A stretch of 56,156 nucleotides of DNA from Tubiluchus corallicola. Lineage: Eukaryota > Animalia > Priapulida. The stretch covers positions 1-56,156 of the forward strand of contig JAQGDQ010002419.1 of the NCBI GenBank assembly GCA_030141605.1. The letters are read 5' to 3'. Under the pieces are notes generated by a model. That model saw nothing but the letters and a program-made list of their open reading frames with translations, had not been told where the DNA came from and did not search any database. Within the stretch, counting starts at the first letter, position 1. Each line of letters starts with the position of its first letter. Position numbers and translations under genes: made by a program. Positions 1-13,282 of the stretch are shown here, piece after piece.

Positions 1-299
1 ACATAACCTACACAAGATACTTTTCCCTCTTCGTTTACAAGTAGACGAAACAAAAATTTTTCTTTTTTCCTTTTTTTATATTTATAGGCAAATAAAAGTG
101 TTTCTAATTCCTGATTAATATAGTTAATAGAAGTTTTCAGTTTAGGTAATTGAGTTGGAACCGAAAGTGTTTCTTCCCCTTCTGATAGATGCTTAAGCAA
201 ATTACAATCATTACTATCATTATTAAAATAGTAGTATGTTTTTTGTGAAAAGAGGTTGATGCTATTAGATAATATGAGAATGAGCACTAATTTTTTCAT
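1..299 (-). CDS. Partial (runs off window edge) secreted hypothetical protein, probable orphan immunity protein
   Basis: Read manually: ATG at 299, MKKLVLILILSNSINLFSQKTYYYF...FRLLVNEEGKVSCVGY, open to position 1. Signal-peptide-like N-terminus; lies directly after the orphan toxin remnant. Not in the ORF track. Confidence 0.6.
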   Translation of the reverse strand, partial: MKKLVLILILSNSINLFSQKTYYYFNNDSNDCNLLKHLSEGEETLSVPTQLPKLKTSINYINQELETLLFAYKYKKRKKEKFLFRLLVNEEGKVSCVGY

Positions 300-318: not shown

Positions 319-632
319 TCACCATTTCCATCTATAATTTTAAGAGCATCTGCTGGGTCTATTGAGCTAAATGGACCCACAGAAATATTTATTCCATCAC
401 CAGTAGCGGAAGAGCGTCCCCACCAATCATCTTTTGTAGATGCAGAATTTACATTAACTTCTGTTCCACTAAAACCAGTCACTATATCTTGTAAATTTGC
501 TAACCCTCCAAAGAAATACCCCCGGTTTTGTAGTTTAGAATTCCCCAACTTACCGAAGTATCCTCATTCACCCTGACTGAAATTGTAAGAACCAAAGCCC
601 AAACTCATTGAAAAATCCGTTTGCCCTCCACT
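319..632 (-). pseudogene. Orphan Rhs toxin C-terminal fragment (decayed)
   Basis: Close copy of 3398-3714 in the Rhs gene (SGGQTDFSMSLGFGSYNFSQGE...DALKIIDGNG). Has TGG->TGA stop at 564-566, W->R, and H->R in the WWGHSS motif; truncated before the Cys motif. Confidence 0.85.
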
Positions 633-711
633 ATTAATATCCTAATACACCTGTAATATATAAAATATTAGTAGAAACTCTTATTATACATTGCATATTA
701 TTTTTAATTAT

Positions 712-1227
712 TTATTTGAATTTAATTTCTTTCTCACGTGAAGGAAAAATAATGAATAGACCATCATTACTAATTGTTACTACTATAGCTCCATAAAGAC
801 GCTTATCTGTTATAGCGTTAAATTTTTTTATATTTCTCTTTGAAGGATAAGTAAGTTTTGTCTTTTCCGGTAAAAGCCTATTTACAAAATCTTCATTGGG
901 ACTAATGTAAAATTCTTTGTTCTCTTCTATAATATTTAAGAAACTTCCTTGATAAATAACACCTTTCTTTATAAGGGTGTCTTGTGTTAGATATTTATCC
1001 GATTTTATATAAAAAAGATAATAAACAAAAAAAGTATCATTTGAATGTTCTACAACATAATACGTCGGAAAAAAAGAACGACACTTGACAAAATAATGAC
1101 TTGTATCCGTAAGATATATTTTGTCTATTTCTATATATCTATTGTTTTGGCTAAAACAATCGTATCCAAATAAATGTAAAAAGATAAATAACTTAATAAT
1201 TGATAATAGGTGCTGCATACATTCCAA
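712..1227 (-). CDS. Putative immunity protein, copy 1 (allele A)
   Basis: 171 aa, signal-peptide-like N-terminus, paralogue of the gene overlapping the toxin end; unique C-terminus GAIVVTISNDGLFIIFPSREKEIKFK. Confidence 0.75.
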   Translation of the reverse strand: MECMQHLLSIIKLFIFLHLFGYDCFSQNNRYIEIDKIYLTDTSHYFVKCRSFFPTYYVVEHSNDTFFVYYLFYIKSDKYLTQDTLIKKGVIYQGSFLNIIEENKEFYISPNEDFVNRLLPEKTKLTYPSKRNIKKFNAITDKRLYGAIVVTISNDGLFIIFPSREKEIKFK

Positions 1228-1359
1228 TTTGTCTTGTTAATAATTGAAGATTTAAAAATAATTACCTCCACTATTAATATCCTAATACACCTCTAATATA
1301 TAAAATATTAGTAGAAACTCTTATTATACATTGTATTATTTTTAATTATTTATTTGAAT

Positions 1360-1863
1360 TTAAATACTTTCACGTAAACAATAAATAAAGAATCGACCAT
1401 CATTACTAGTTTTTACTGCTATAGTTCCATAAAGACGCTTATCTGTCATAGCGTTAAATCTTTTTATATTTCTCTTTGAAGGATAAGTAAGTTTTGTCTT
1501 TTCCGGTAAAAAGCTATTTACAAAATCTTCATTGGGACTAATGTAAAATTCTTTGTTCTCTTCTATAATATTTAAGAAACTTCCTTGATAAATAACACCT
1601 TTCTTTATAAGGGTGTCTTGTGTTAGATATTTATCCGATTTTATATAAAAAAGATAATAAACAAAAAAAGTATCATTTGAATGTTCTACAACATAATACG
1701 TCGGAAAAAAAGAACGACACTTGACAAAATAATGACTTGTATCCGTAAGATATATTTTGTCTATTTCTATATATCTATTGTTTTGGCTAAAACAATCGTA
1801 TCCAAATAAATGTAAAAAGATAAATAACTTAATAATTGATAATAGGTGCTGCATACATTCCAA
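1360..1863 (-). CDS. Putative immunity protein, copy 2 (A/B chimera, C-terminal 2-nt deletion)
   Basis: Same as copy 3 except for a 2-nt deletion near 1370 that changes REKVFKFK to RESI*. Confidence 0.72.
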   Translation of the reverse strand: MECMQHLLSIIKLFIFLHLFGYDCFSQNNRYIEIDKIYLTDTSHYFVKCRSFFPTYYVVEHSNDTFFVYYLFYIKSDKYLTQDTLIKKGVIYQGSFLNIIEENKEFYISPNEDFVNSFLPEKTKLTYPSKRNIKRFNAMTDKRLYGTIAVKTSNDGRFFIYCLRESI

Positions 1864-1987
1864 TTTGTCTTGTTAATAATTGAAGATTTAAAAATAATTA
1901 CCTCCACTATTAATATCCTAATACACCTCTAATATATAAAATATTAGTAGAAACTCTTATTATACATTGCATATTATTTTTAATTAT

Positions 1988-2503
1988 TTATTTGAATTTA
2001 AATACTTTCTCACGTAAACAATAAATAAAGAATCGACCATCATTACTAGTTTTTACTGCTATAGTTCCATAAAGACGCTTATCTGTCATAGCGTTAAATC
2101 TTTTTATATTTCTCTTTGAAGGATAAGTAAGTTTTGTCTTTTCCGGTAAAAAGCTATTTACAAAATCTTCATTGGGACTAATGTAAAATTCTTTGTTCTC
2201 TTCTATAATATTTAAGAAACTTCCTTGATAAATAACACCTTTCTTTATAAGGGTGTCTTGTGTTAGATATTTATCCGATTTTATATAAAAAAGATAATAA
2301 ACAAAAAAAGTATCATTTGAATGTTCTACAACATAATACGTCGGAAAAAAAGAACGACACTTGACAAAATAATGACTTGTATCCGTAAGATATATTTTGT
2401 CTATTTCTATATATCTATTGTTTTGGCTAAAACAATCGTATCCAAATAAATGTAAAAAGATAAATAACTTAATAATTGATAATAGGTGCTGCATACATTC
2501 CAA
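1988..2503 (-). CDS. Putative immunity protein, copy 3 (A/B chimera)
   Basis: N-terminal variable patches match copy 1; C-terminal patches match copy 4. Confidence 0.75.
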   Translation of the reverse strand: MECMQHLLSIIKLFIFLHLFGYDCFSQNNRYIEIDKIYLTDTSHYFVKCRSFFPTYYVVEHSNDTFFVYYLFYIKSDKYLTQDTLIKKGVIYQGSFLNIIEENKEFYISPNEDFVNSFLPEKTKLTYPSKRNIKRFNAMTDKRLYGTIAVKTSNDGRFFIYCLREKVFKFK

Positions 2504-2627
2504 TTTGTCTTGTTAATAATTGAAGATTTAAAAATAATTACCTCCACTATTAATATCCTAATACACCTCTAATATATAAAATATTAGTAGAAACTCTTAT
2601 TATACATTGCATATTATTTTTAATTAT

Positions 2628-3143
2628 TTATTTGAATTTAAATACTTTCTGACGTAAACAATAAATAAAGAATCGACCATCATTACTAGTTTTTACTGCT
2701 ATAGTTCCATAAAGACGCTTATCTGTCATAGCGTTAAATCTTTTTATATTTCTCTTTGAAGGATAAGTAAGTTTTGTCTTTTCCGGTAAAAAGCTATTTA
2801 CAAAATCTTCATTAGGACTAATGTAAAATTCTTTGTTCTCTTCTATAATATTTAAGAAACTTCCTTGATAAATAACACCTTTCTTTATAAGGGTGTCTTG
2901 TGTTAGATATTTATCCCAAAATAAATTATAAAAATAATAAACAAAAAAAGTATCATTTGAATGTTCTACAACATAATACCTTGGAAAAAGCATAGGACAC
3001 TTGACAAAATAATGACTTGTATCCGTAAGATATATTTTGTCTATTTCTATATATCTATTGTTTTGGCTAAAACAATCGTATCCAAATAAATGTAAAAAGA
3101 TAAATAACTTAATAATTGATAATAGGTGCTGCATACATTCCAA
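2628..3143 (-). CDS. Putative cognate immunity protein, copy 4 (allele B)
   Basis: Overlaps the 3' end of the Rhs toxin gene, the usual toxin-immunity coupling; unique patches CPMLFPRY and YFYNLFWDK. True start may be the ATG at 3134. Confidence 0.8.
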   Translation of the reverse strand: MECMQHLLSIIKLFIFLHLFGYDCFSQNNRYIEIDKIYLTDTSHYFVKCPMLFPRYYVVEHSNDTFFVYYFYNLFWDKYLTQDTLIKKGVIYQGSFLNIIEENKEFYISPNEDFVNSFLPEKTKLTYPSKRNIKRFNAMTDKRLYGTIAVKTSNDGRFFIYCLRQKVFKFK

Positions 3144-6100
3144 TTTGTCTTGTTAATAATTGAAGGTTTAAAATATGGGGATGAAGATTAAGGGGAAGTG
3201 TTGGTACTCCTACTGACCATAATGACCTTGAAACGTGATTAACACAACTAAATCCCAGTGCATTCCATTTTAATTCACCAACACCCCATAATCCATCTCC
3301 TAATTGTATATTATTAGTCATTTTCTGCATCATTTTAGAATTGACGTTTTGTAATTTTATCACCCAAGTTCCATCATTATTTGGAAAGTTAGGATAATCA
3401 CCATTTCCATCTATAATTTTAAGAGCATCTGATGGGCTCTCTATTGGGGAAGCTGGACCCACAGAAATATTTATTCCATCACCAGTAGCGGAAGAGTGTC
3501 CCCACCAATCATCTTCTGTAGATTCAGAATTTACATTAACTTCTGTTCCACTAAAACCAGTCACCATATCTTGTAAATTTGTTAACCCTCCAAAGAAATA
3601 CCCCCAGTTTTGTAGTTTAGAATTCCCCGACTTACCGAAGTATCCCCATTCACCCTGACTGAAATTGTAAGAACCAAAGCCCAAACTCATTGAAAAATCC
3701 GTTTGCCCTCCACTCAACAAATGATTACCTCCACTATTTATGCTAGAACCACCCGCAATAGCCAAAGTATTCGCAAAAGGAATGCCACTACCTGCTATAG
3801 CTGCTCCTGTCACCGCACTTGCTCCTCCTATTATATACCCAAACATTTCCCAACCTTTAGCATCATTAGCCTCTCCTATCTTGTAGCCACTATATCCTCC
3901 TATTATTGCTCCTACAACGGCTGCTGCTAAAAATATCCACTCCCCATCAGGATCTACAAACATCATAGGGCTATTGCCCATAGCTTGGTAAGGTGAGTGC
4001 ATCTGCAAAGCAGGATCTACTGCAAACCACCTTCCCAAATTAGCATCGTACTGTCGTGCGTGAAAATCGTGCAAGTTAATATTAAAATACTCCAAATGCT
4101 CCTTGCCCGTGTAGAGGTATTGGCTTTTTACATTATCAGGTAGTTCATTTCTACTTAGTTTCTCTATCGTTTGTCCATAAGGGTAGTAAGCCGTTTCTTG
4201 TAGCACCTCGCCCTTGTTGTCAGCAACTACTCGTGTATGCCCCAAGTGGTCGGTGAGTAACACTGCCTTTGTGTCCTCTTCCTCACCCTTCAAGGTATAG
4301 CCTAAAGGGTTACTCACAAGTACAAGCGTATCATTAATATACAGATACGCACCTTGATAATCGTATTTTAGCAAGAGGCTATCGTTTTTGTTAAATATCT
4401 CACGTCTTAAAAGTGAGCCATCCGCTATGTAGGTGTTTACTATCTTTCCTTTGCCTACTACCTCCATTGTATCAGGTAGGTTGATGTCGTTGTAGCTAAT
4501 ACGTAGTCCCTTGTAGCTATCCTCCACCAAGTTACCCAACTCATCATAAGTATAAGTGCCTAGCACTTCTTCGGGTGTTTGGTCTTTTTCATCGTGCGTT
4601 CTGCGTAGGTTCTCTTGTATGGCAAGGGTGTCTTTTAGGTCTATAATGCCGTCACCATCCGCATCCATATAGCTAAACTGTGGGGTACTGGTAATAGTTG
4701 TGTAGGGCTTCCACTCCGTGCCTTGCTCATCTTCGTCCCTTGGGGTGGCTGTGCTTCCATAGTGCAAGCCCAATGGCAATATGTCGGCTGGCTCTACTAA
4801 GCCGCTATTGTCCATATCACCCGGATATACTGTTATCTTTTGCAGGCTTTTACGGTGTAGAGTGGTGAGTTGGTTGCCCGTGTATTCATACTCCAAATCA
4901 TCCAAGTCGCCATACACTTCATTACGTAGATGTCCCTTGCGGTGTAGGGTAGTAATGTTCCCGTGTTTGTCGTAAGAGTAAGCTGTGTTGTAAGTGTTCT
5001 CCTCTTTTGTGTCTTGGTAGTAGATAGCTCTTGTCAGTTGGTTAGCATCGTCATAAGAGAAGGCATAGCCTGATAGGGGTGTGTTTTTGGTCTTCCACTC
5101 CATAGCTGTAATGTTGCCGTTGTACATAGGGGTGTTGCTCATATACTCGTGAGGCTCGTCATACTCTATCCTTTCGTAAAAAAGCTGTTCGTTTTTGTCG
5201 TTGTTAGTTTCTATTTGGGTAAGGCGGTAGTGGAAGTCGTAATGGTAGTTTGTTCTTATTTGTCCTTCATACAGTCGTTCATAGCTTTTGTTGCCTTTTT
5301 CATCGTAGCGGTAATAGGCTATTTCATAGGTGTTTTTGTCTCCCTGCTCTTGGTAGTGGATGGATTTCAACATGTCGTTGTGGTAGTATTGGTAATCCTT
5401 ACGTGCAAAGTGTTGCTTGTCAAAGTCTAAGAAGTTTTTGTAGGTAAATAGTTGTCTTACTCTGCCATCGAAATGGTAGTTGGTAAATACTGCGTCTATT
5501 CCGCCTATGTTGTTGGAGGAGAAGGATTGTACTACTCTGTTGTATTTGTCGTAGTATATTACGCTTTCTATCCATTGGTCGGTGCCAAGTATGCGGGTTC
5601 GTGTGCCTGTTACTTGTGTCTTTACGTTGTGATAGGGCTTGCCAAGGGGTTCGTAGGGTGGTGCTGACTGTGCAAAGGGGAAGTCGTAGTCGTCGTAGTG
5701 GGTTTCTGATAGGGGTATCTTTTTTCCGTCTTTTTTTATGCCTGTGGCTATTACGCGGCTGTAGCGGTCGTAGTCTATGTAGGAGGTGTTGCCTTCTGTG
5801 TCTTCTTCTTCTATCAGTCTGTCTAAGTGGTCGTAGCTAAGGTGTATGGTACCTGCTTGTGGTATGTGTTTGCGGATAAGGCGTCCTTTTTTGTCGTGGA
5901 TGAATTGATAGACGTAATGGTGATTGTTGATATCTCCTTTGGATAGTGGGGGGAGTATGGCGGTAAGGTTGCCATAGTGAAAGTCGTAGTAGTAGAGTGT
6001 GGTTAGGGTTTCTTTGTTTATCTGGCTTTCTCTTTTGAATAGTTGACCTTTGTATGAGGTGTATGTGGTGTGTTGTATGCCTTGAGGGTCGGTGGTACTG

Positions 6101-6663
6101 ACTATGCTTATGTAGCCGGGGGGGTATTTTTTGTCTTCGTATTTTTCGGTGAATGCGTCATATTCTTTGTGTAGGAAGATGTCGGTGTTGGCGTAGCGTT
6201 CAATTTTGGTAGTGTGGTTTGTGCCTATTTGGTATTTCTGTCCAAAGCCACCTTGTTCTATTACTTGACCGCGTGGGTTGAATATGCTTTGTGCGCTGGG
6301 TATGTCTGTGTGGGCTTGGTTTAGTATGTTTTCCCAGTTGTGTAGGTAGTCGCCTTTGATGTTGAGTTGCATTGGCATATAGCTAAAGGGTTGTCTGCCT
6401 GCTATGTCGTATTTATGAAATTCTATGTGGTCGTTTTGGTAGATGGAGGCGTTCAGGTGGTTGGTTTGTAGGGGGCGGTCGGCTCCATCGGTGTAGATAA
6501 TGGTGGTTGAGGCTGCTGCTGGGTTGGTGGTATTGCTTAGCTCATAGGCACTCATCCCTGATACTTTTGCTCGTTTTATGCGCACGTAGTTTTGGTCTCG
6601 GCTCTGCGGGTACAGAACGCTGCACAAGTGCAGAAAGGCCAAGAGTAAAGCAATGGGTCTCAT
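3109..6663 (-). CDS. Rhs-repeat core toxin (DUF6443-like N-terminus, YD repeats, dockerin-like insert, His/Cys toxin tip)
   Basis: Signal peptide; YxDGxxRPLQ N-terminal motif; YNGNI motif; core motifs LTDHLGHTRVV, YYPYG, YLYTGKE, ARQYDANLGRWFAVDP and PYQAMGNSPMMFVDPDG cleavage signature; Gly/Ala-rich hydrophobic segment followed by a variable C-terminus. Confidence 0.93.
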   Translation of the reverse strand: MRPIALLLAFLHLCSVLYPQSRDQNYVRIKRAKVSGMSAYELSNTTNPAAASTTIIYTDGADRPLQTNHLNASIYQNDHIEFHKYDIAGRQPFSYMPMQLNIKGDYLHNWENILNQAHTDIPSAQSIFNPRGQVIEQGGFGQKYQIGTNHTTKIERYANTDIFLHKEYDAFTEKYEDKKYPPGYISIVSTTDPQGIQHTTYTSYKGQLFKRESQINKETLTTLYYYDFHYGNLTAILPPLSKGDINNHHYVYQFIHDKKGRLIRKHIPQAGTIHLSYDHLDRLIEEEDTEGNTSYIDYDRYSRVIATGIKKDGKKIPLSETHYDDYDFPFAQSAPPYEPLGKPYHNVKTQVTGTRTRILGTDQWIESVIYYDKYNRVVQSFSSNNIGGIDAVFTNYHFDGRVRQLFTYKNFLDFDKQHFARKDYQYYHNDMLKSIHYQEQGDKNTYEIAYYRYDEKGNKSYERLYEGQIRTNYHYDFHYRLTQIETNNDKNEQLFYERIEYDEPHEYMSNTPMYNGNITAMEWKTKNTPLSGYAFSYDDANQLTRAIYYQDTKEENTYNTAYSYDKHGNITTLHRKGHLRNEVYGDLDDLEYEYTGNQLTTLHRKSLQKITVYPGDMDNSGLVEPADILPLGLHYGSTATPRDEDEQGTEWKPYTTITSTPQFSYMDADGDGIIDLKDTLAIQENLRRTHDEKDQTPEEVLGTYTYDELGNLVEDSYKGLRISYNDINLPDTMEVVGKGKIVNTYIADGSLLRREIFNKNDSLLLKYDYQGAYLYINDTLVLVSNPLGYTLKGEEEDTKAVLLTDHLGHTRVVADNKGEVLQETAYYPYGQTIEKLSRNELPDNVKSQYLYTGKEHLEYFNINLHDFHARQYDANLGRWFAVDPALQMHSPYQAMGNSPMMFVDPDGEWIFLAAAVVGAIIGGYSGYKIGEANDAKGWEMFGYIIGGASAVTGAAIAGSGIPFANTLAIAGGSSINSGGNHLLSGGQTDFSMSLGFGSYNFSQGEWGYFGKSGNSKLQNWGYFFGGLTNLQDMVTGFSGTEVNVNSESTEDDWWGHSSATGDGINISVGPASPIESPSDALKIIDGNGDYPNFPNNDGTWVIKLQNVNSKMMQKMTNNIQLGDGLWGVGELKWNALGFSCVNHVSRSLWSVGVPTLPLNLHPHILNLQLLTRQIGMYAAPIINY
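4593..4836 (-). other. Dockerin-like domain inserted in the Rhs core
   Basis: VYPGDMDNSGLVEPADILPLGLHYG...YMDADGDGIIDLKDTLAIQENL: two DxDxxGxxxxxD Ca-binding loops each followed by a helix, between the conserved GNQL and YTYDxxGN core motifs. Confidence 0.75.
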
Positions 6664-6679
6664 CTCTTTTATTGTTTGT

Positions 6680-8947
6680 TTATTTAACTCTCATTATAAA
6701 GGCTAATACGTAGTAGGGAGGTATAATATCAAAATTATCAGTAGTTACTTTGTCTGCTGGCGATTTTAACCCGTCCTCTCCTCCATTGCTTACTCTACCA
6801 CTAAAAGAACTATTCGGGTGGGTGTGTCTATCTTCATTATTCTCAGATGTAGTAGTAGCATCTCTGGTTTCATGAACTCCTCTATCAGAGCTCCTGCTAC
6901 CTCCTGTCTTTCTATTAGATGGAGTGGATTCATAAGTATGTGTATGACTCCCTGAAGAGGTTATATGTATACTTGCGTCATTGCCTCTTACAGAATGATG
7001 ATGTTTAGGAATATGATTCTTAGATAATCTAAATGTAGCTGTAGAGCTACTGCTGCCTCCTTCTGCATTCACATTGTTATAATCACCACTGGCAGCATCA
7101 TACGCCACAATAAACCTACCACTTAAGTTGGGGGTCGTTATGAGTGAACCATTAATATCCGTGTCTGTTCTACCATCACACAAAGCCCACCCATCAGGTA
7201 TAGTATTAGGGTCTCCGCTCCACATTATAATGCCTCCTATGGGTATGGTGCCGTAGCCTACAAATTGTCCTTGTGTTTCAATATTGTCTTCTGCTATTAT
7301 TTTGCCTTCTGTGGCAATATCATTGGCAGTTTGTATGCTTTCTACAAAAAGGGTATCTACTTCTACATTGGAAGATATTACTCCATCTACCCTTACTACT
7401 TCACTTACTATTAATGTATCAGCAATAATGCTACTTGTTTCTAAGTTTTCTACTTTCACATAGTTTTGTTCAAAGTCGCCCTCTATGAGTGTGTTGGTTC
7501 CACTGCCTATCATTAGTTTGTTGCTTTCGTTATTTAGGTTCTGCCCTACTTTGTTACCTATTACTATGTTGTTGTAGCCATTGTTCCCTTGTGCTGCTTT
7601 GTCTCCTATGTATATATTGCTACCACCTGTTGTATTGCTTTTGCCTGCTTCGTTGCCAATAAACACATTGCCACTAGCCGACAAGCTATTTAGCCCTGCA
7701 CGGTAGCCTATAGCTATGTTGTCATTGTTGGAAGTAGCATCTGGGTTTATACCTTGCAGTGCCTCTGTGCCAATAACTACATTTCGCTCTCCACTGCTTT
7801 TTTCGGCTGCTTTGCTACCTATCACCACACTATAATTGTTTGCTCCTTCTCGACTAGCGTATTTTCCTATGACTACTGCACCTGTGCTGTTTTTTGCTTT
7901 GGATGCTTTACTACCTACAATTACATTATCAGAGGATAGTGTATATTTCCCTGCCTCGTCGCCTACAATTACATTGTGTGAGCCAGCGGAATTTAATTGC
8001 CCTGCCTCTGTACCTATCATTACATTAGAGGTAGAGGCTTGTGTGGTGTTTTGTCCTGCTCTTTTACCTACAAAGGTGTTGCGTTCGCCTTGTTCTCCAC
8101 TGTTAATCTTTTCTGAGCCTATCAATACGTTGGTAGTATCTATCTCTATACTGCCTGCTATCATATCTTCTAAGGCTTGATTGTTGAGACGGTAAGGCTC
8201 GTTCCACGCTCCATAAGTAGTATCGCCATTTATATCTATTTCTATAAGGCGCAACTTTGCCCATAGGTCGCCTTCCTTTCGTTCTAAGGTCCAATTAGAA
8301 GTAGCCGCACTATCAGGAGCATACATCTTTTCAACTGAGCAAGGGTCTATGGTTACCTCCAATTTACCATCCACTATTTGCAGTGTATTACCCAATACTA
8401 CGCCTCCTCTGGTGCTATGGCTAGCAATAGGTAGTTCATAATAGTTGGCATTGTTTTCTACCGAAAGTAGTTTGGCCAACAAACTATCAGCAAAGTTATT
8501 GTCCGAGTATGTAGCACGATGCTCTATGCCTAGTAGCTTTTGATAGAGGCTATCTATAAAGTTATGCTCAGTGTAGTTCAGACTGTCTAACTTGATTTTA
8601 AGAACGTAAGTAAAATTTTCTTCGGAGTACTTAATACTGTCTAACTTTTCTTTGTGAGAAGTTGTGAAGTTGTGGTCGGTTTGTGAGGTGGCTCTTAGGT
8701 AGATAACACCTTCGCCTTGTTGCCCTTGATAGATTTCTAATCCATCCTCGCCTTCTGCTTTTATCTCATAATTGTAGGTAGCATTGATAAGGTCTTTAAA
8801 ATCCTGTCCATTGGGTTTACTACCATCTTGAAACTTGGAGTGTAATTCACTGGGGGTTTTTCTCTCTATTTGAGAATAAGCAGTGGTGTTAAGGAACACA
8901 AAAGCAATAGCAACTGCAAAAAATTTCACTGTATTTTTCATTATCAA
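6680..8947 (-). CDS. Secreted tail-fibre-like / trimeric adhesin protein with phage tail-collar-like C-terminus
   Basis: Signal peptide; N-terminal ELHSKFQDGSKPNGQDFKDLIN; four NF..KL repeats ending ANYYELPIASHSTRGGV; about 14 YadA-head-like NxxIGxxAG repeats; collar motif IPIGGIIMWSG..IPDGWALCDG..TPNLSGRFIV and terminal PPYYVLAFIMRV. Confidence 0.8.
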   Translation of the reverse strand: MIMKNTVKFFAVAIAFVFLNTTAYSQIERKTPSELHSKFQDGSKPNGQDFKDLINATYNYEIKAEGEDGLEIYQGQQGEGVIYLRATSQTDHNFTTSHKEKLDSIKYSEENFTYVLKIKLDSLNYTEHNFIDSLYQKLLGIEHRATYSDNNFADSLLAKLLSVENNANYYELPIASHSTRGGVVLGNTLQIVDGKLEVTIDPCSVEKMYAPDSAATSNWTLERKEGDLWAKLRLIEIDINGDTTYGAWNEPYRLNNQALEDMIAGSIEIDTTNVLIGSEKINSGEQGERNTFVGKRAGQNTTQASTSNVMIGTEAGQLNSAGSHNVIVGDEAGKYTLSSDNVIVGSKASKAKNSTGAVVIGKYASREGANNYSVVIGSKAAEKSSGERNVVIGTEALQGINPDATSNNDNIAIGYRAGLNSLSASGNVFIGNEAGKSNTTGGSNIYIGDKAAQGNNGYNNIVIGNKVGQNLNNESNKLMIGSGTNTLIEGDFEQNYVKVENLETSSIIADTLIVSEVVRVDGVISSNVEVDTLFVESIQTANDIATEGKIIAEDNIETQGQFVGYGTIPIGGIIMWSGDPNTIPDGWALCDGRTDTDINGSLITTPNLSGRFIVAYDAASGDYNNVNAEGGSSSSTATFRLSKNHIPKHHHSVRGNDASIHITSSGSHTHTYESTPSNRKTGGSRSSDRGVHETRDATTTSENNEDRHTHPNSSFSGRVSNGGEDGLKSPADKVTTDNFDIIPPYYVLAFIMRVK

Positions 8948-8986
8948 ATTCTGTTTTATTGGTGTATATTTATATTTTTTTCATTT

Positions 8987-11900
8987 TCAATTCTCTGTTA
9001 CATATCTTATATGAAAAGTAGTGGCAGTATCGTTTCTAATATACATTTGTCCTATTCCTAACTCTTCTATGTCCAAAGGGTCGTAGGAGGCTTTGTAGTT
9101 ATACTGATATTGTTCCAGAGCGTCTTCATCTTCGTTTCCTATGTTCGAAAGTCTACCAAAATCGTCATAACCATATTTTATAGTCTGCTCTTGTGAAGAA
9201 ACTTCTTGTTGCAGTTGTAGTAGGTTGGTGTATGCATAATTAGAAACATACTTACCTGCATCTACAGAGTGTGTTTTGGGTAGATTACTCGAGGTGTAAG
9301 AATAGGAAATAGGCACGGCATCTTTACCAGTATATTTCAGTATGTTGCCTTTGTTGTCGTATTGGTTGAAGGTGGTTTGTAACTCATAATTATCTGCAAG
9401 GGTATTGTAAGTTTCTATGCTTTCTACAATGTAGTCAGGGTCTTCATTGCTTCCTAATACATAGTTGATTTTTTGTCCTGATAGGAGTTTCCCGTTTTTT
9501 CTTATCTCTTGCTGTACTGGGGCAATAATATGCTTGTCCTCAAAGTATTGTTTTATAGGCTGATTGCTCTGATGCACATAAGTAATAGAAGTTTCTGTGG
9601 TCTCTACATTATCACTGGCAATTACTTTTACAGGTAGGTTTTTGTATTTACTGTATTTTTCATATTCATAGGTGGTAGTGGTAGTGATAGGCTGCCTTGC
9701 ACTTTCGGCATAATCTTCGCGAATAGTCCCTTCCAAAGTTTTAGTAACTGCAGCTATATCATAGGTGCTATGACGTAAAAGATTATCATTTTTATCTATC
9801 TGTACATTGTAGCCTCCAACAGAGTTGCTCCATTTTAAACTATAATTGTTAGAAGTTTTATTGAGTAAGTTATCTTTATTGTCATAAGTTTCTTGTTGAT
9901 AGAGATAAGTCCTATACACATCTCTGTCTGTAATGGTAGAAAAAAGCAGGTAGTAAGAACTAGAAGGATCTTGGCCTGCTATTACATCAGGTTTATTGTC
10001 TTCATCTTTGGCTGTTTTAAAGTAAGAAATAGTTTTGCCTTGTTCTTTGTTTGTCTGCATTACCTTGCCAAAACCTACTATACCCCCGCCTGTGGCTAAC
10101 TGTTCGCCTCCGCCCTTAGGATAAAGTAAATAATGATAATAGTCCCAAAAACGTCCAACCTCATACTTTCTATTTCTGTTGAAAGGTATAATACCTTCCT
10201 CATAGTTATAAGTTATTTCTTCCATTACCTCTCCTTTTTCGTCATCCGTAGCTTTTATATTTTTTATAAAACAACCATATTCACTAGTATAGTAGTCGAA
10301 GGTTTTGTGCATTCCTGTAGGGTAGGTAATGGAGGAAAGCAAACCATTCTCTATATTGTTAAGCGAAGGGGCATAATTATATTCTTCGTACTCGTTTATA
10401 CCCTCGAATTTTACTCTTAACATTTCCTTTAACGATGATGAATATTCTATATTCCGTTCTTCATTTTTTTCATTGCTGTCTATATCTAGCTCACTGGGGT
10501 ATGTAAAGTTGTAAAAAGTAGATTTAGGACTTGTAAAATCTACATAGTAACCATAAAAATTCTGTTTGTAAGAAAGTCTATAAGGTAGTTTACTAGGGTT
10601 AATGTAATTAAATTTAAAAGGATTGATATTATCTCCATAGATGTCTTTCTCCTCTATTTCTGTAAGGAACATCCTTTGTGTAGTACCTGCTTGTTCTATA
10701 AAGAAACTACCACTGTGCCATGCATTTGTTTTAAAACGAAATGCAGGCGAGGAGGTAGTAACAGAATTATGATAATTATAAGTAAATGTATAGCTTTTAA
10801 TAAAATCATCATCTTTCGTTTTTATACGTATTTCTCTAAGAAAACTACCTACCTCATCTATCATATCTTTTCTGTTTTCTACTGTAAAGAATTCTACTTT
10901 GTGGTTGCCTCCTTCTACCTCTTGCAACATAGGGGTATGGGCTGTAACCAAACTTTTAGCAATTCCTATTTCATTACGAGGAACTGGGGACTCATATCTG
11001 TAAAACTTATTATCCTCTATTTTGGGATAAGAATTCTGAATACAAACACCTGACAGCCTACTGCCTTGATAATACCGACTTGTTTGTTTTTTATAAGAAA
11101 AGGTTACTTTATCATTAAAAGCAGGTTGTATTATCTCTATTAAATGCCAAGAGGACCTATAACTATACGATTGACTACTATTGATTACACGTTTTTCCTG
11201 CAAATCCAAAGAATAAGCGGGAATTTTCTTGATTACTATCCCCAGAAAATTTCTCTTCCAAATTTCCTCAAACTTTGAAGTATAACGTACAATTTCACTT
11301 GTATTTTCTATTTCCATCTCTTCTATGGCTTCTTCTTCATAGCCAAATCTGTAAATAGTGCCATCTTCGGCAGTAATAGTAAAGCCATTAATGGTTGAAG
11401 AAGAAGCATCCATCTCTATTTTCAGGTTGTTATCGTTGGCAAGAATATTAATTCTGTTAGAAGCGGCTCTTCTGCTAATAGTGAATTTACCGTTTAAGTT
11501 GCCACAAGAAAAATAAAATATATCAGGGTGGAGATCGTTATCTTTCATTTCTTCGACTGATGCCCAATTATCCCAATAGCCTATCTTTTCTTTTGTTTCA
11601 TTTTTACTATCTACTACACCGTCATTATTATCTTCAATAATAGATTTTACTTGGGTTGTTTTCTCATCGGGGTAGCCTTTTACTACACGAGTAATCACTC
11701 CGCTTGCTTGTAAGTTCCATCCCATACCTACCCAAGAAGCTAGGTCATCTACTCTTACTCCGTTGGAATGATACACCAAGCTAATGGGCACGGATAGGTG
11801 GGTACTTTTCAGGGTGTACAAAGGAATGCCTACATTAATAGCTCCTGTGTAAAGGCTAGAGGCGGTAGAGGCAGAACGTATCAGCCCTGCTACTGTGGGT

Positions 11901-12160
11901 GAGGGTACAGTAACCAAACTACTACTACCAGACAAGGCTCCGAACTCGTCACTGCTCATTGAAGTAGGAACACCTTTATGTAAGGATTTTAACATCAAAT
12001 GACTGGTAGTATCTTCTTCTGCTGCTGTATCTTCCTGTTCAGCTGGAAGATAGGGCTGGGCAGAAGTCAAGCTAAAAGAGAAAAGAAAAAAGAAAAAAAC
12101 ACTCTTTCCTCTCCCATAGATACAAAATAAAGACAAAAATATAAATGCAAGTGTTTTCAT
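8987..12160 (-). CDS. YD-repeat protein, N-terminal half of a split Rhs/TcB-like shell
   Basis: Signal peptide; PSPTVAGL..SLYTGAINVGIPLY..PISLVYHSNGVRV..ASWVGMGWNL..GVITRVVKGYPDE; PDIFYF; LSSITYPTG; terminal YGYDDFGRL. Confidence 0.85.
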   Translation of the reverse strand: MKTLAFIFLSLFCIYGRGKSVFFFFLFSFSLTSAQPYLPAEQEDTAAEEDTTSHLMLKSLHKGVPTSMSSDEFGALSGSSSLVTVPSPTVAGLIRSASTASSLYTGAINVGIPLYTLKSTHLSVPISLVYHSNGVRVDDLASWVGMGWNLQASGVITRVVKGYPDEKTTQVKSIIEDNNDGVVDSKNETKEKIGYWDNWASVEEMKDNDLHPDIFYFSCGNLNGKFTISRRAASNRINILANDNNLKIEMDASSSTINGFTITAEDGTIYRFGYEEEAIEEMEIENTSEIVRYTSKFEEIWKRNFLGIVIKKIPAYSLDLQEKRVINSSQSYSYRSSWHLIEIIQPAFNDKVTFSYKKQTSRYYQGSRLSGVCIQNSYPKIEDNKFYRYESPVPRNEIGIAKSLVTAHTPMLQEVEGGNHKVEFFTVENRKDMIDEVGSFLREIRIKTKDDDFIKSYTFTYNYHNSVTTSSPAFRFKTNAWHSGSFFIEQAGTTQRMFLTEIEEKDIYGDNINPFKFNYINPSKLPYRLSYKQNFYGYYVDFTSPKSTFYNFTYPSELDIDSNEKNEERNIEYSSSLKEMLRVKFEGINEYEEYNYAPSLNNIENGLLSSITYPTGMHKTFDYYTSEYGCFIKNIKATDDEKGEVMEEITYNYEEGIIPFNRNRKYEVGRFWDYYHYLLYPKGGGEQLATGGGIVGFGKVMQTNKEQGKTISYFKTAKDEDNKPDVIAGQDPSSSYYLLFSTITDRDVYRTYLYQQETYDNKDNLLNKTSNNYSLKWSNSVGGYNVQIDKNDNLLRHSTYDIAAVTKTLEGTIREDYAESARQPITTTTTYEYEKYSKYKNLPVKVIASDNVETTETSITYVHQSNQPIKQYFEDKHIIAPVQQEIRKNGKLLSGQKINYVLGSNEDPDYIVESIETYNTLADNYELQTTFNQYDNKGNILKYTGKDAVPISYSYTSSNLPKTHSVDAGKYVSNYAYTNLLQLQQEVSSQEQTIKYGYDDFGRLSNIGNEDEDALEQYQYNYKASYDPLDIEELGIGQMYIRNDTATTFHIRYVTEN

Positions 12161-12173
12161 TTGTTAAAACCTC

Positions 12174-12948
12174 TTAGTTTAAGATAATTTTCTTACTGAC
12201 AATAAAATCATTATAGACCGTTTGTATCAAATAAATACCTTTGGGAAGAAAAGATAAATCAAAAGTAGCTATATCTTTTTTGGGTACGGTGGTTCGCACC
12301 ACAGACCCCTCCTCTCATTGCTCTAACTTCTACTATCTCTTTTTCTACCCCGTATTCATATTTGATATTTACAATACCATTTGTAGGGTTAGGATAAAGT
12401 ATAAATTGATATAGCTCAGTGTTTTTCGAAAGGTGTTTCAAAGAATATTCGCCTATGTAAATAGTATCGGAAGTAGAAAGAAGAGGAATGGCTTCTCCTT
12501 TGTGATTGTTTGCCATATAAGGATGAGCAGACACAGAGATAAAGTCCTTGGTTAAACCCTCTTTTATCTTTACAAAAAGAGAGAGTACATTTTCTTTACT
12601 GTCTAAAAAAAAGTTCTCATTCAAACCTGTAACAGCATAACGCAGCAGCCCTTCACTTTGATTTTGTTGATATAGGTCAATATAATCCTTGCCTCGCTCT
12701 CCAAAAGTGCTGCCTGTGGAAAGTGCAATAGAATTAGTGTCCAAGTCCTGTGGGTTATAACGAATGTCAAAAGCTATACCATAAAGAAGTTCTATATTAT
12801 CTTGAGGGTAGAAATTAAAAACCACCACCTCATCCAAACGCTCACGAGATAAAACAGGAGTAGGAGTTTCTACTTTTAGCAGCTCTTGCGAGAAAACAGA
12901 ACAATTTAATAGAAAGAAAGATATTAAATTTAAGCAAAATAATCTCAT
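12174..12948 (-). CDS. Cohesin-like protein with T9SS type A C-terminal sorting domain (frameshift at ~12306-12315)
   Basis: Start MRLFCLNLISFFLLNCSVFSQ at 12948. Beta-sandwich with LYGIAFDIRYNPQ..GLLRYAVT..ANNHKGEAIPL, then LYPNPTNGIVNI. The shifted frame continues GSVVRTTVPKKDIATFDLSFLPKGIYLIQ..KKIILN* to 12174. The ORF track gives 12259..13032. Confidence 0.72.
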
Positions 12949-13001
12949 AAGACTAAAAGATTTTAAGAAATTAGGTGTAAAATATCTTAACTTAAAAAAC
13001 A

Positions 13002-13033
13002 CAAGTTTACATAAAAAAACTCTTTTGTACAAA
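13002..13033 (-). promoter_or_regulatory. Putative Bacteroidota sigma-A promoter of the Rhs operon
   Basis: Minus strand TTTG (13033-13030), 20 nt, TAAACTTG (13009-13002); one mismatch to TAnnTTTG; supports the 12948 start. Confidence 0.45.
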
Positions 13034-13282
13034 AAAATATATTAAGAATTAGCAATATATTCTAAGTAGTTTAAAACCATCCTTAAATTCAGTTACTGCT
13101 AAGTACAATACAAGTTTTAGAAACTTTCATCTTTTAGTTTTTGGCAATAAAAATAGGCAATGAATGAAAAATTAAATATTAGTATACCATTACCTTATTT
13201 TGTTATAAAGACTATCTTTGTAAAACTTAAATATTTAACTCCTATTTAACCTTTATTTATTAGTCAACACAAACAAGCTAAT

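Follow-up and report, generated by a model that had tools for sequence, protein, structure and literature searches.

The closest described counterparts of the locus analysed here are the esaG and tipC arrays of type VII secretion loci, immunity arrays known from Staphylococcus among them, for which recombination in conserved blocks is described as gaining and losing copies and making mosaic alleles, and whose variable regions are proposed in the same study to determine toxin binding (Garrett et al. 2022, PMC9484751). At the main/orphan Rhs locus of Salmonella LT2 exchange is reported to swap the toxin tip (Koskiniemi et al., PMC3967940), and the rAID arrays of gut Bacteroidales are described as unrelated orphan immunity genes with a recombinase (PMC12247911).

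The window, which is the whole 56,156-nucleotide stretch analysed (contig JAQGDQ010002419.1), contains an Rhs gene with a variable tip, an adjoining small gene and downstream orphan tip fragments, the make-up of an Rhs polymorphic toxin locus. Four minus-strand units of ∼640 bp each lie 3' of the Rhs gene, and their alignment gives the transcription order B, A/B, A/B, A. Short-read contigs were available from runs X1 to X3, all of one sample, which is the sole sample with the locus; run X4 gave low-complexity matches only. The toxin gene and the units are laid out as follows.

3109..6663, minus strand: Rhs polymorphic toxin gene of 1184 aa with a signal-peptide-like start, DUF6443, RHS repeats and Rhs-associated core (open reading frame; Pfam; TIGR03696)
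3112..3564, minus strand: C-terminal toxin domain, predicted permuted NlpC/P60 (papain-like) fold (model and conserved residues)
2541-3173, minus strand: unit U1 (open reading frame end at 2628)
2628..3134, minus strand: U1 gene, allele B, 168-aa secreted protein, likely the cognate immunity protein (open reading frame list, alignment, family context)
1901-2540, minus strand: unit U2 (open reading frame end at 1988)
1988..2494, minus strand: U2 gene, hybrid with A-type 5' patches and B-type 3' block (alignment; path in X1 and X2 contigs, except patch 2 in X2)
1265-1900, minus strand: unit U3 (open reading frame end at 1360)
1360..1854, minus strand: U3 gene, hybrid like U2, with a private 2-bp deletion close to its 3' end (alignment)
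625-1264, minus strand: unit U4 (open reading frame end at 712)
712..1218, minus strand: U4 gene, allele A (open reading frame list, alignment; A-type 3' block on separate X1 and X2 contigs)

The Rhs gene matches Pfam DUF6443 (E 3.6e-12), RHS_repeat and TIGR03696 (E 9.5e-13), and at full length it ends in a variable tip past a DPDG motif, a tip that homologs with diverse N-termini have in common. The model of this tip (pLDDT 90) finds its best structural match in TseH (VIA-align Z 9.3, rmsd 4.0, 129 aligned, 9% identity), followed by RID (Z 8.0), YiiX (5.6), a DUF862 deSUMOylase (5.1) and PLAAT4 (4.5), all of them middling Z scores. We take these five proteins, partly from general background and partly from PMC12994826, to have a common fold. 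Foldseek and a PDB sequence search with the tip returned no match, and Pfam across 78 members of the tip family gave two weak rows and nothing else. The His codon (3496-3498) precedes the Cys codon (3244-3246), with both residues invariant in 78 of 78 aligned tips; a His-then-Cys catalytic order and an exported immunity protein, here a putative one, are shared with the permuted NlpC/P60 antibacterial effectors TseH and Tox-Act1 as these are described in PMC12994826. In contrast to those two, the present tip sits on an Rhs protein with a signal peptide and not on a demonstrated T6SS cargo. A permuted NlpC/P60 fold is a prediction for the tip and, because of this predicted fold, the toxin target would likely be in the envelope, with membrane lipids the likely candidates by analogy with Tox-Act1 and TseH. 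The tip family is unannotated, and the proteins downstream of its 77 distinct relatives, their partners, fall into at least six groups dissimilar to one another.

The first-pass annotation had called the repeated small gene an immunity gene, a reading that position, family context and weak homology support. The U1 gene starts within the toxin gene, overlapping its final 26 nt, and a gene of at least 90 aa begins beside the toxin stop in 97 of 106 full-length related tips, with a hydrophobic N-terminus in 96 of these 97. Against a profile built from 16 downstream proteins, the window's own left out, alleles B and A outrank 2000 of 2000 shuffles as well as the remaining downstream proteins, a weak match (17.8 and 17.4 bits compared with 17.1 for the best shuffle) to a profile whose two protein clusters were chosen after inspection of the downstream-gene data. 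One starred clade of 15 takes in the window's tip together with 7 of the 11 distinct tips that have the profile family downstream. By its weak homology, the small protein is a distant relative of the family found downstream of the closest tips. Given that kinship and the small gene found behind 97 of 106 tips, the small secreted gene is likely an immunity gene, its product putatively periplasmic. Single-sequence homolog searches, Pfam and NCBIfam gave no match for the small protein, and a profile search gave no more than three proteins, relatives of the seed family. Its single-sequence monomer model (pLDDT 51) is too weak for placing the variable patches, a fold search gave no row at Z ≥5, and the complex predicted from toxin tip and allele B without alignments scored 0.00, which counts neither way. 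As a point against such an array, near-identical tandem copies were seen in none of the 97 related loci, 62 of which have at least 1.5 kb downstream, in short-read assemblies of a kind that collapse such repeats; one 54% paralogue was seen (locus L031).

Remnants of toxin genes are carried between and beyond the small genes, next to a further reading frame at the window edge.

2495..2554, also 1855-1914 and 1219-1278, minus strand: head of the repeated unit, a remnant of Rhs plus a toxin 3'-end copy (repeat family, junction display, contig joint)
319..632, minus strand: dead orphan toxin-tip copy, ∼95% identical to 3398-3714 (repeat search, alignment)
3..299, minus strand: unrelated signal-peptide open reading frame that extends past the window edge (open reading frame list)

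In the unit head a ∼23-nt match to Rhs 3719-3741 is fused to a copy of 3135-3173, with ∼540 nt of tip absent between them; the joint from 3173 to 2545 is present in runs X1, X2 and X3, and the tandem joint is thus found in three of the four runs compared. By their sequence, the later units are all orphan modules that have lost nearly the whole toxin part and retain the small secreted gene along with two short remnants of toxin. The first-pass annotation had given neither the toxin identity nor this nature of the repeated unit. Decayed Rhs sequence as the origin of the whole spacer was rejected, since upstream of the 23-nt remnant 85 of 1000 shuffles match as well. The orphan tip at 319..632 has a premature stop, has lost the conserved His and is without its 3' part, and its variant sites and joint are found in X1 and X2 contigs. 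The reading frame at 3..299 has no family match, and its continuation appears as a loose end in contigs; its position makes it a likely immunity gene for a different toxin tip that has been deleted. Promoter-like sites are at chance level (21 compared with 23.5), and the sole terminator-like hairpin lies on the opposite strand within each gene.

This arrangement shares with Salmonella LT2, as described in PMC3967940, a full-length Rhs gene with its immunity gene followed by orphan tips about 95% identical, and duplication and recombination within the locus, whereas here it is the immunity gene within which the exchange falls, the orphan tips being dead or deleted. With the rAID arrays it has in common divergent orphan immunity alleles in Bacteroidota, for which non-synonymous change has been proposed at the effector interface (PMC12247911), but the copies here are near-identical paralogues immediately behind their own toxin. 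No tyrosine recombinase family match was found among nine proteins scanned across 1-17.6 kb, and the interval from the array to the Rhs gene has no reading frame of recombinase size.

The order of the copies as first annotated, B, A5'/B3', A5'/B3' and A at 2628, 1988, 1360 and 712, is confirmed by the open reading frames and the alignment. The variable patches and the switch interval are as follows.

2917..2995, minus strand: two 5' variable patches, codons 47-52 and 68-73, with 46 identical nt between them (alignment)
2642..2793, minus strand: 3' variable block (codons 114-165); each of its 17 differences is non-synonymous (codon comparison)
2794..2916, minus strand: interval in which A gives way to B, 123 nt, or just the 20 nt of 2794-2813 should site 2814 be parental (alignment)

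All 15 differences in the 5' patches (2980-2995 and 2917-2933 in U1 coordinates) are of type B,A,A,A, and 16 differences in the 3' coding block (2642-2793) are of type B,B,B,A, as is spacer site 2569, so all of these sites, 15 in the patches and 17 in block and spacer, agree on one order, B, AB, AB, A. Unequal crossover had been proposed to fit the order of the copies, and this typing bears out the fit. The one site noted at the time as not fitting (GAG/CAG near the 3' end) is 2651, which is private to U1. Between copies the identical blocks measure 170, 46, 102 and 20 nt, and the spacers differ at one site besides the deletion in U3; the 640-bp period is beyond the reach of Tandem Repeats Finder, with its period limit of 500. 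The 20-nt block is the stretch at 2794-2813, whose core occurs 4 times where 0.07 is expected by chance, and at its left edge stands the synonymous site 2814, variant in U1 only. None of the listed short-read contigs shows U1's base at 2814 or at 2651. The claim that the breakpoint is confined to ∼20 nt therefore holds if 2814 is parental, but if 2814 is private to U1 like 2651 the interval becomes 123 nt (2794-2916). An adenine-specific pattern like that of DGRs was not seen on inspection of the codon table by eye. U3 is otherwise identical to U2 but has two 2-bp deletions (near 1372 and near 1334), the first of which truncates the last codons; this private deletion in the U3 gene is probably an assembly error, since it is unlisted among contig indels and similar 2-bp deletions distinguish the window from contigs in single-copy DNA.

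Tandem paralogues, conserved blocks, near-identical spacers and a first copy directly behind the toxin are all traits that the locus shares with esaG/tipC as described in PMC9484751, and so are mosaic alleles (U2 and U3) that switch in conserved blocks, with the caveat on site 2814. It differs in that the array stands at a Bacteroidota-type Rhs locus and not at a T7SS locus, in a secreted family that Pfam and NCBIfam do not match, in having two parental alleles only and two apparently identical hybrids, in units that keep remnants of deleted tips, and in being known from one sample and not from a strain series.

We read the locus as a four-copy immunity-gene array behind an Rhs toxin, in which the middle A/B hybrids probably arose by unequal homologous recombination of older B and A copies, a reading to which we give a probability of about 0.65 and of which the immunity function and the recombination mechanism are the inferred parts. 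An orphan module of toxin tip and immunity gene, kin to the main pair, would have come to lie behind the toxin and would then have lost most of its tip, the surviving remnant carrying the start of the immunity gene. B and A would have diverged patchwise while long blocks remained identical, misaligned sister copies would have exchanged in the shared middle block to give B, A/B, A, and a second, very recent exchange would have added one more A/B.

The first-pass annotation had found the mostly non-synonymous, clustered differences consistent with diversifying selection at a toxin-binding face, and the pattern of the differences stands: 26 of 28 differing codons are non-synonymous, where the neutral expectation here is about 75-80%, and the changes are more tightly clustered than chance would allow (the longest stretch of identity is 139 nt, P 0.0004). 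The excess itself is marginal (P 0.01-0.17). The dN/dS check that had been suggested gives 2.7, which is not clearly above 1 (Fisher P 0.17; binomial P 0.01-0.08), and the dead toxin fragment next to the array is equally skewed, with 8 of 8 changes non-synonymous (P about 0.1). Hence the hybrids may well be real but neutral, an account somewhat short of an even chance, in which the copies stem from a short-lived amplification, or a gain in dosage, at an Rhs locus prone to recombination, and the patches from drift or multi-nucleotide mutation and not from selection on toxin binding; it invokes the same mechanism with another meaning. In allele A, patch 2 forms a perfect 12-nt palindrome of a kind that template switching can produce (10 such occur in the 56-kb window), bacterial duplications are described as frequent and unstable (PMC3967940), and the whole Rhs unit seems to be amplified in the sample. 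Against neutrality, all 17 differences of the 3' block are non-synonymous (P 0.004-0.012, for a block picked post hoc), A and B carry no stop and no indel, and the 5' patches align with length-variable loops of the related family. We consider it unlikely that, in a wild population of Bacteroidota, the array is actively generating immunity alleles by combination, with orphan modules stripped of their toxin reduced to 640-bp recombining units that reshuffle three patches into new specificity against variants of an undescribed permuted NlpC/P60 family of Rhs toxins; extra breakpoint classes may possibly exist in the one sample, a second switching within 2706-2726 and a third between the 5' patches.

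It is more doubtful still that the hybrids are an assembly artefact, in which the genome holds only B then A and the assembler ran the shared-block loop two extra times. Such a loop would give the identical order B, AB, AB, A, and U2 and U3 are the same apart from the two 2-bp deletions; the window also has residual errors, 2-bp deletions relative to contigs at 6661 and 12310, the latter of which frameshifts a T9SS sorting domain. Yet a graph loop would yield identical copies, and the window errors together with the private deletions of U3 suggest an assembly made from long reads, which could span 2.5 kb. As first annotated, the chimeras were taken as real sequence, and the hybrid path and the tandem joint do appear in independent contigs of the one sample, whereas the exact count of four rests on the window's assembly. 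The X1 contig over 2741-3165 is 16 letters off U1, the count of U2; 18 would be expected of the A type, and 15 if the contig had U1's base at 2814. The X2 contig follows the U2 path through 2814-2792. The hybrid-diagnostic 31-mers are valid only if U1's base at 2814 is real; were it a consensus error, two and four copies would be indistinguishable by any 31-mer.

Coverage, the check proposed for copy number, favours more than two copies but does not prove four, being confounded by other strains. With single-copy flank depths of 10.8 in X1 and about 5 in X2, the middle, B-type 3' and joint contigs have relative depths of 3.5, 2.6 and 4.2 in X1 and 2.5, 1.9 and 2.5 in X2, where the four-unit window predicts 3.6, 2.5 and 3, and where contig depth, by the tool's own warning, is not equal to copy number. 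The depths vary between the sample's runs and give no exact match to the window. Depths above single copy are likewise found for the A-type 3' block (2.6x in X1), the orphan joint (2.2-2.3x) and the Rhs core (2.9-3.5x), which means that depth is inflated by other strains or additional modules. The ratio of B3' to A3' is about 1:1 in X1, as two copies would give, and 1.7:1 in X2, whereas the window expects 3:1. Against the loop, the spacer-to-gene joint in X1 reaches a depth of 45, compared with 24.7 for the orphan joint and 17.5 for the toxin-to-gene entry, and the B-type 3' depth of 28 is higher than that of the toxin-to-B entry by roughly one flank copy. Least probable is that four copies came first and then received patches from a donor strain or a further orphan by gene conversion or patch import, with no unequal crossover. 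Arithmetic on the positions of contig breaks suggests that a third allele departs from the A path at 2697 and that X2 has a second class of recombinants, such that more than two parents may exist, but this account requires several parallel events where one exchange and one duplication suffice, and the spacer site goes with the 3' block as crossover predicts.

The mechanism of the array that we favour, recombination between tandem immunity genes, is already described for esaG/tipC and is not new here. The study of esaG offered toxin specificity altered by recombination as speculation (PMC9484751). With two parents, three patches and their hybrids, the present locus is an unusually simple case, in effect a four-allele test of whether recombination changes toxin specificity. 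It would extend recombining immunity arrays to the Rhs loci of Bacteroidota, and it points to an unannotated family of toxin tips.

The minus strand of the window holds an Rhs gene for an 1184-aa protein with DUF6443, RHS repeats and an Rhs core and, downstream in the sense of transcription, four head-to-tail units of 633, 640, 636 and 640 bp (U1 to U4), each with a copy of a small gene that occurs as allele A, allele B or a hybrid.

6680-13032, minus strand, upstream of Rhs: genes for a tail-collar-domain protein (755 aa), for a 1057-aa protein that matches no Pfam or NCBIfam family and for a T9SS cargo protein
3109-6663, minus strand: Rhs gene, whose C-terminal domain is the toxin tip
2541-3173, minus strand: U1, allele B
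1901-2540, minus strand: U2, A/B hybrid
1265-1900, minus strand: U3, A/B hybrid
625-1264, minus strand: U4, allele A

Neighboring genes of SusC-like and T9SS sorting-domain types suggest that the DNA is from Bacteroidota. On alignment, the 15 differences within two 5' patches are of type B, A, A, A from U1 to U4, and in the 3' coding block all 16 differences, like one spacer site, follow B, B, B, A. This unit-by-unit typing bears out the copy order read in the first-pass annotation, B followed by two A/B hybrids and A, and the single site that had not fitted is 2651 (Gln/Glu), private to U1. U1 also differs alone at 2814 (synonymous), and the private changes of U3 are two 2-bp deletions. The breakpoint, placed by the same annotation within 20 nt, keeps that interval if 2814 is parental; with one site of U1 clearly private already, the same may hold for 2814, and the interval would then widen to 123 nt. 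We rate the two about equally. Patch 2 of allele A (1001-1012; also in U2 and U3) is a perfect 12-nt palindrome absent from allele B, and template switching could have created it. Within every gene copy a terminator-like hairpin lies on the opposite strand (959-980, 1595-1616, 2235-2256 and 2875-2896).

The start of the U1 gene overlaps the toxin 3' end by 26 nt. At the heads of U2-U4, a 23-nt piece matching Rhs 3719-3741 is fused to a copy of the last ~65 nt of the toxin, and these two joined remnants identify the repeated unit, at the level of sequence, as an orphan toxin-immunity module from which about 540 nt of toxin would have been deleted, with the small-gene start still in place. Adjoining U4 downstream is a dead toxin-tip copy (about 95% identical, with a premature stop and the conserved His gone), beyond which an unrelated signal-peptide ORF extends past the window edge.

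The locus is present in only one public sample (three runs, X1 to X3, used as assembled contigs), which may be the window's own source, and the spacer-to-gene joint was found in 3/3 runs. The sole X1 contig across 2741-3165 shows 16 letter differences from U1, the count of U2, and X2 follows the same path across 2814-2792 but has patch 2 of B type; this hybrid path is diagnostic only if the U1 base at 2814 is real. Neither 2814, 2651 nor the U3 deletions are among the variants listed for the contigs, a list short of 5 variant rows and 38 pieces; contigs also lose minority variants. Relative to the single-copy flank (depth 10.8 in X1, about 5 in X2), the middle, B-type 3' block and joint stand at 3.5, 2.6 and 4.2 in X1 and at 2.5, 1.9 and 2.5 in X2, close to the 3.6, 2.5 and 3 predicted by the window's arrangement, with the caveat for all such ratios that the depth of a contig does not equal a number of copies. 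The A-type 3' block, orphan joint and Rhs core are also at 1.1-3.5 times flank, and in the flanking sus region the sample contains further strains. Compared with the contigs, the window has 2-bp deletions in single-copy DNA at 6661 (against X1 and X2) and at 12310 (against X1), the latter frameshifting the T9SS sorting domain of a cohesin-like gene (12259-13032) and probably an assembly error. Because of these deletions, we suggest that the window is a long-read assembly and that U3's deletions are likely errors. Joint, hybrid path and depth make more than two copies and genuine hybrids probable; that the proposed array has exactly four is unproven.

The sample seems heterogeneous beyond this. 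Depths at 2705 and 2727 in X2 imply, by table arithmetic, a short contig (depth about 6) combining B type at 2705 with A type at 2727, which would be a second A/B recombinant absent from the window or else a library chimera. By the same arithmetic, the A path drops in depth at a break near 2697 in X1 and X2, suggesting a third allele that departs there. The Rhs core (4003-6671) has a depth of ~3-3.5 times flank in both runs, and a contig at about 2.8 times flank runs from the Rhs start (6671) back into the core end (4013); the population therefore seems to hold more whole Rhs units than the window, which suggests further tandem units with another tip that the window lacks or shows collapsed. 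A third variant of the N-terminal part of the tip (3595-3715, 3820-3942), not in the window, has a depth of 10.1 in X1 and 4.8 in X2, about single-copy in both. The block 6680-13032 appears strain-specific within the sample, given loose contig ends near 13012-13205.

Between the A and B coding sequences 33 nt differ in 28 codons, and the description of the differences as almost all non-synonymous holds as a count (26/28), as does their clustering in patches, which is real. Diversifying selection is plausible but unproven: dN/dS is 2.7 (Fisher P 0.17), the binomial P for the non-synonymous excess is 0.08, 0.03 and 0.01 at a transition bias of 1, 2 and 4, and the 3' block, picked post hoc, gives 17/17 (P 0.004-0.012). 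The skew is not confined to a working gene, because the dead orphan tip shows 8/8 (P about 0.1). The 5' patches align to length-variable loops of the related family; the monomer model of the small protein (pLDDT 51) is too weak for placing them on a face.

Loci with related toxin tips number 129 in the two collections scanned (50 + 79); 106 of them have a full-length tip, with 77 distinct at <92% identity; a His and a Cys are invariant in 78/78 aligned tips. The confident model of the tip (pLDDT 90) best matches TseH (Z 9.3, rmsd 4.0, 129 aligned), then RID, YiiX, a DUF862 deSUMOylase and PLAAT4. A Foldseek search with the tip returned no match, and the Pfam hits of the family amount to two weak rows. 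For permuted NlpC/P60 effectors, Tox-Act1 among them, the periplasm is the site of action and membrane lipids are the target (PMC12994826, in excerpt), and by likeness to them the toxin here may target the envelope.

A single-sequence search with the small protein found no homologue. Next to the toxin stop of 97/106 related full-length tips lies a gene (an ATG ORF of at least 90 aa starting -35 to +60 nt from that stop; median 144 aa), and 96/97 of the products have a hydrophobic N terminus, by a threshold set without a control. Clustering of these proteins gives 7 groups with several members, plus 6 singletons. Among the 7 cluster profiles tried, those of the related clusters c2 and c5 give weak matches to A and B, with E 0.0005-0.04, and that of c6 matches B (E 0.014). 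Under a joint c2+c5 profile (16 proteins) B scores 17.8 and A 17.4 bits, outranking 2000/2000 shuffles (best 17.1), a weak match to clusters picked post hoc. Independently of this match, the window's tip falls in a supported 15-tip clade containing 7/11 distinct tips followed by c2/c5 genes, and 4/5 of its closest tips have such a gene behind them. Downstream genes, profile match and tip clade, taken together, give the small gene a likely immunity role. The small secreted proteins encoded behind this one toxin family (L001-L129) form at least six groups that are dissimilar to one another, and downstream families swap among close tips, with L055 within the c2 clade and L017, L018 and L095 intermixed with L016, L020, L022 and L101; such mixing suggests that immunity families were replaced repeatedly.

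The kind of mechanism proposed is already documented elsewhere: recombination between conserved blocks of tandem esaG and tipC immunity genes yields gain, loss and mosaics, with expansion events verified by long reads (PMC9484751). Duplication and recombination are known for main and orphan Rhs loci (PMC3967940), rapid non-synonymous change for orphan immunity genes of gut Bacteroidales (PMC12247911) and variable poly-immunity regions behind Rhs for Stenotrophomonas (10.64898/2026.07.13.738213), all as given in excerpts of these sources. Among titles and abstract openings, with incomplete coverage, none described this toxin family or an array of the kind in an Rhs locus of Bacteroidota, and no tandem near-identical copies were seen among 97 related loci. 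The observation made in the first-pass annotation is confirmed and its interpretation partly supported, and the locus is mainly of use as a clean test case.
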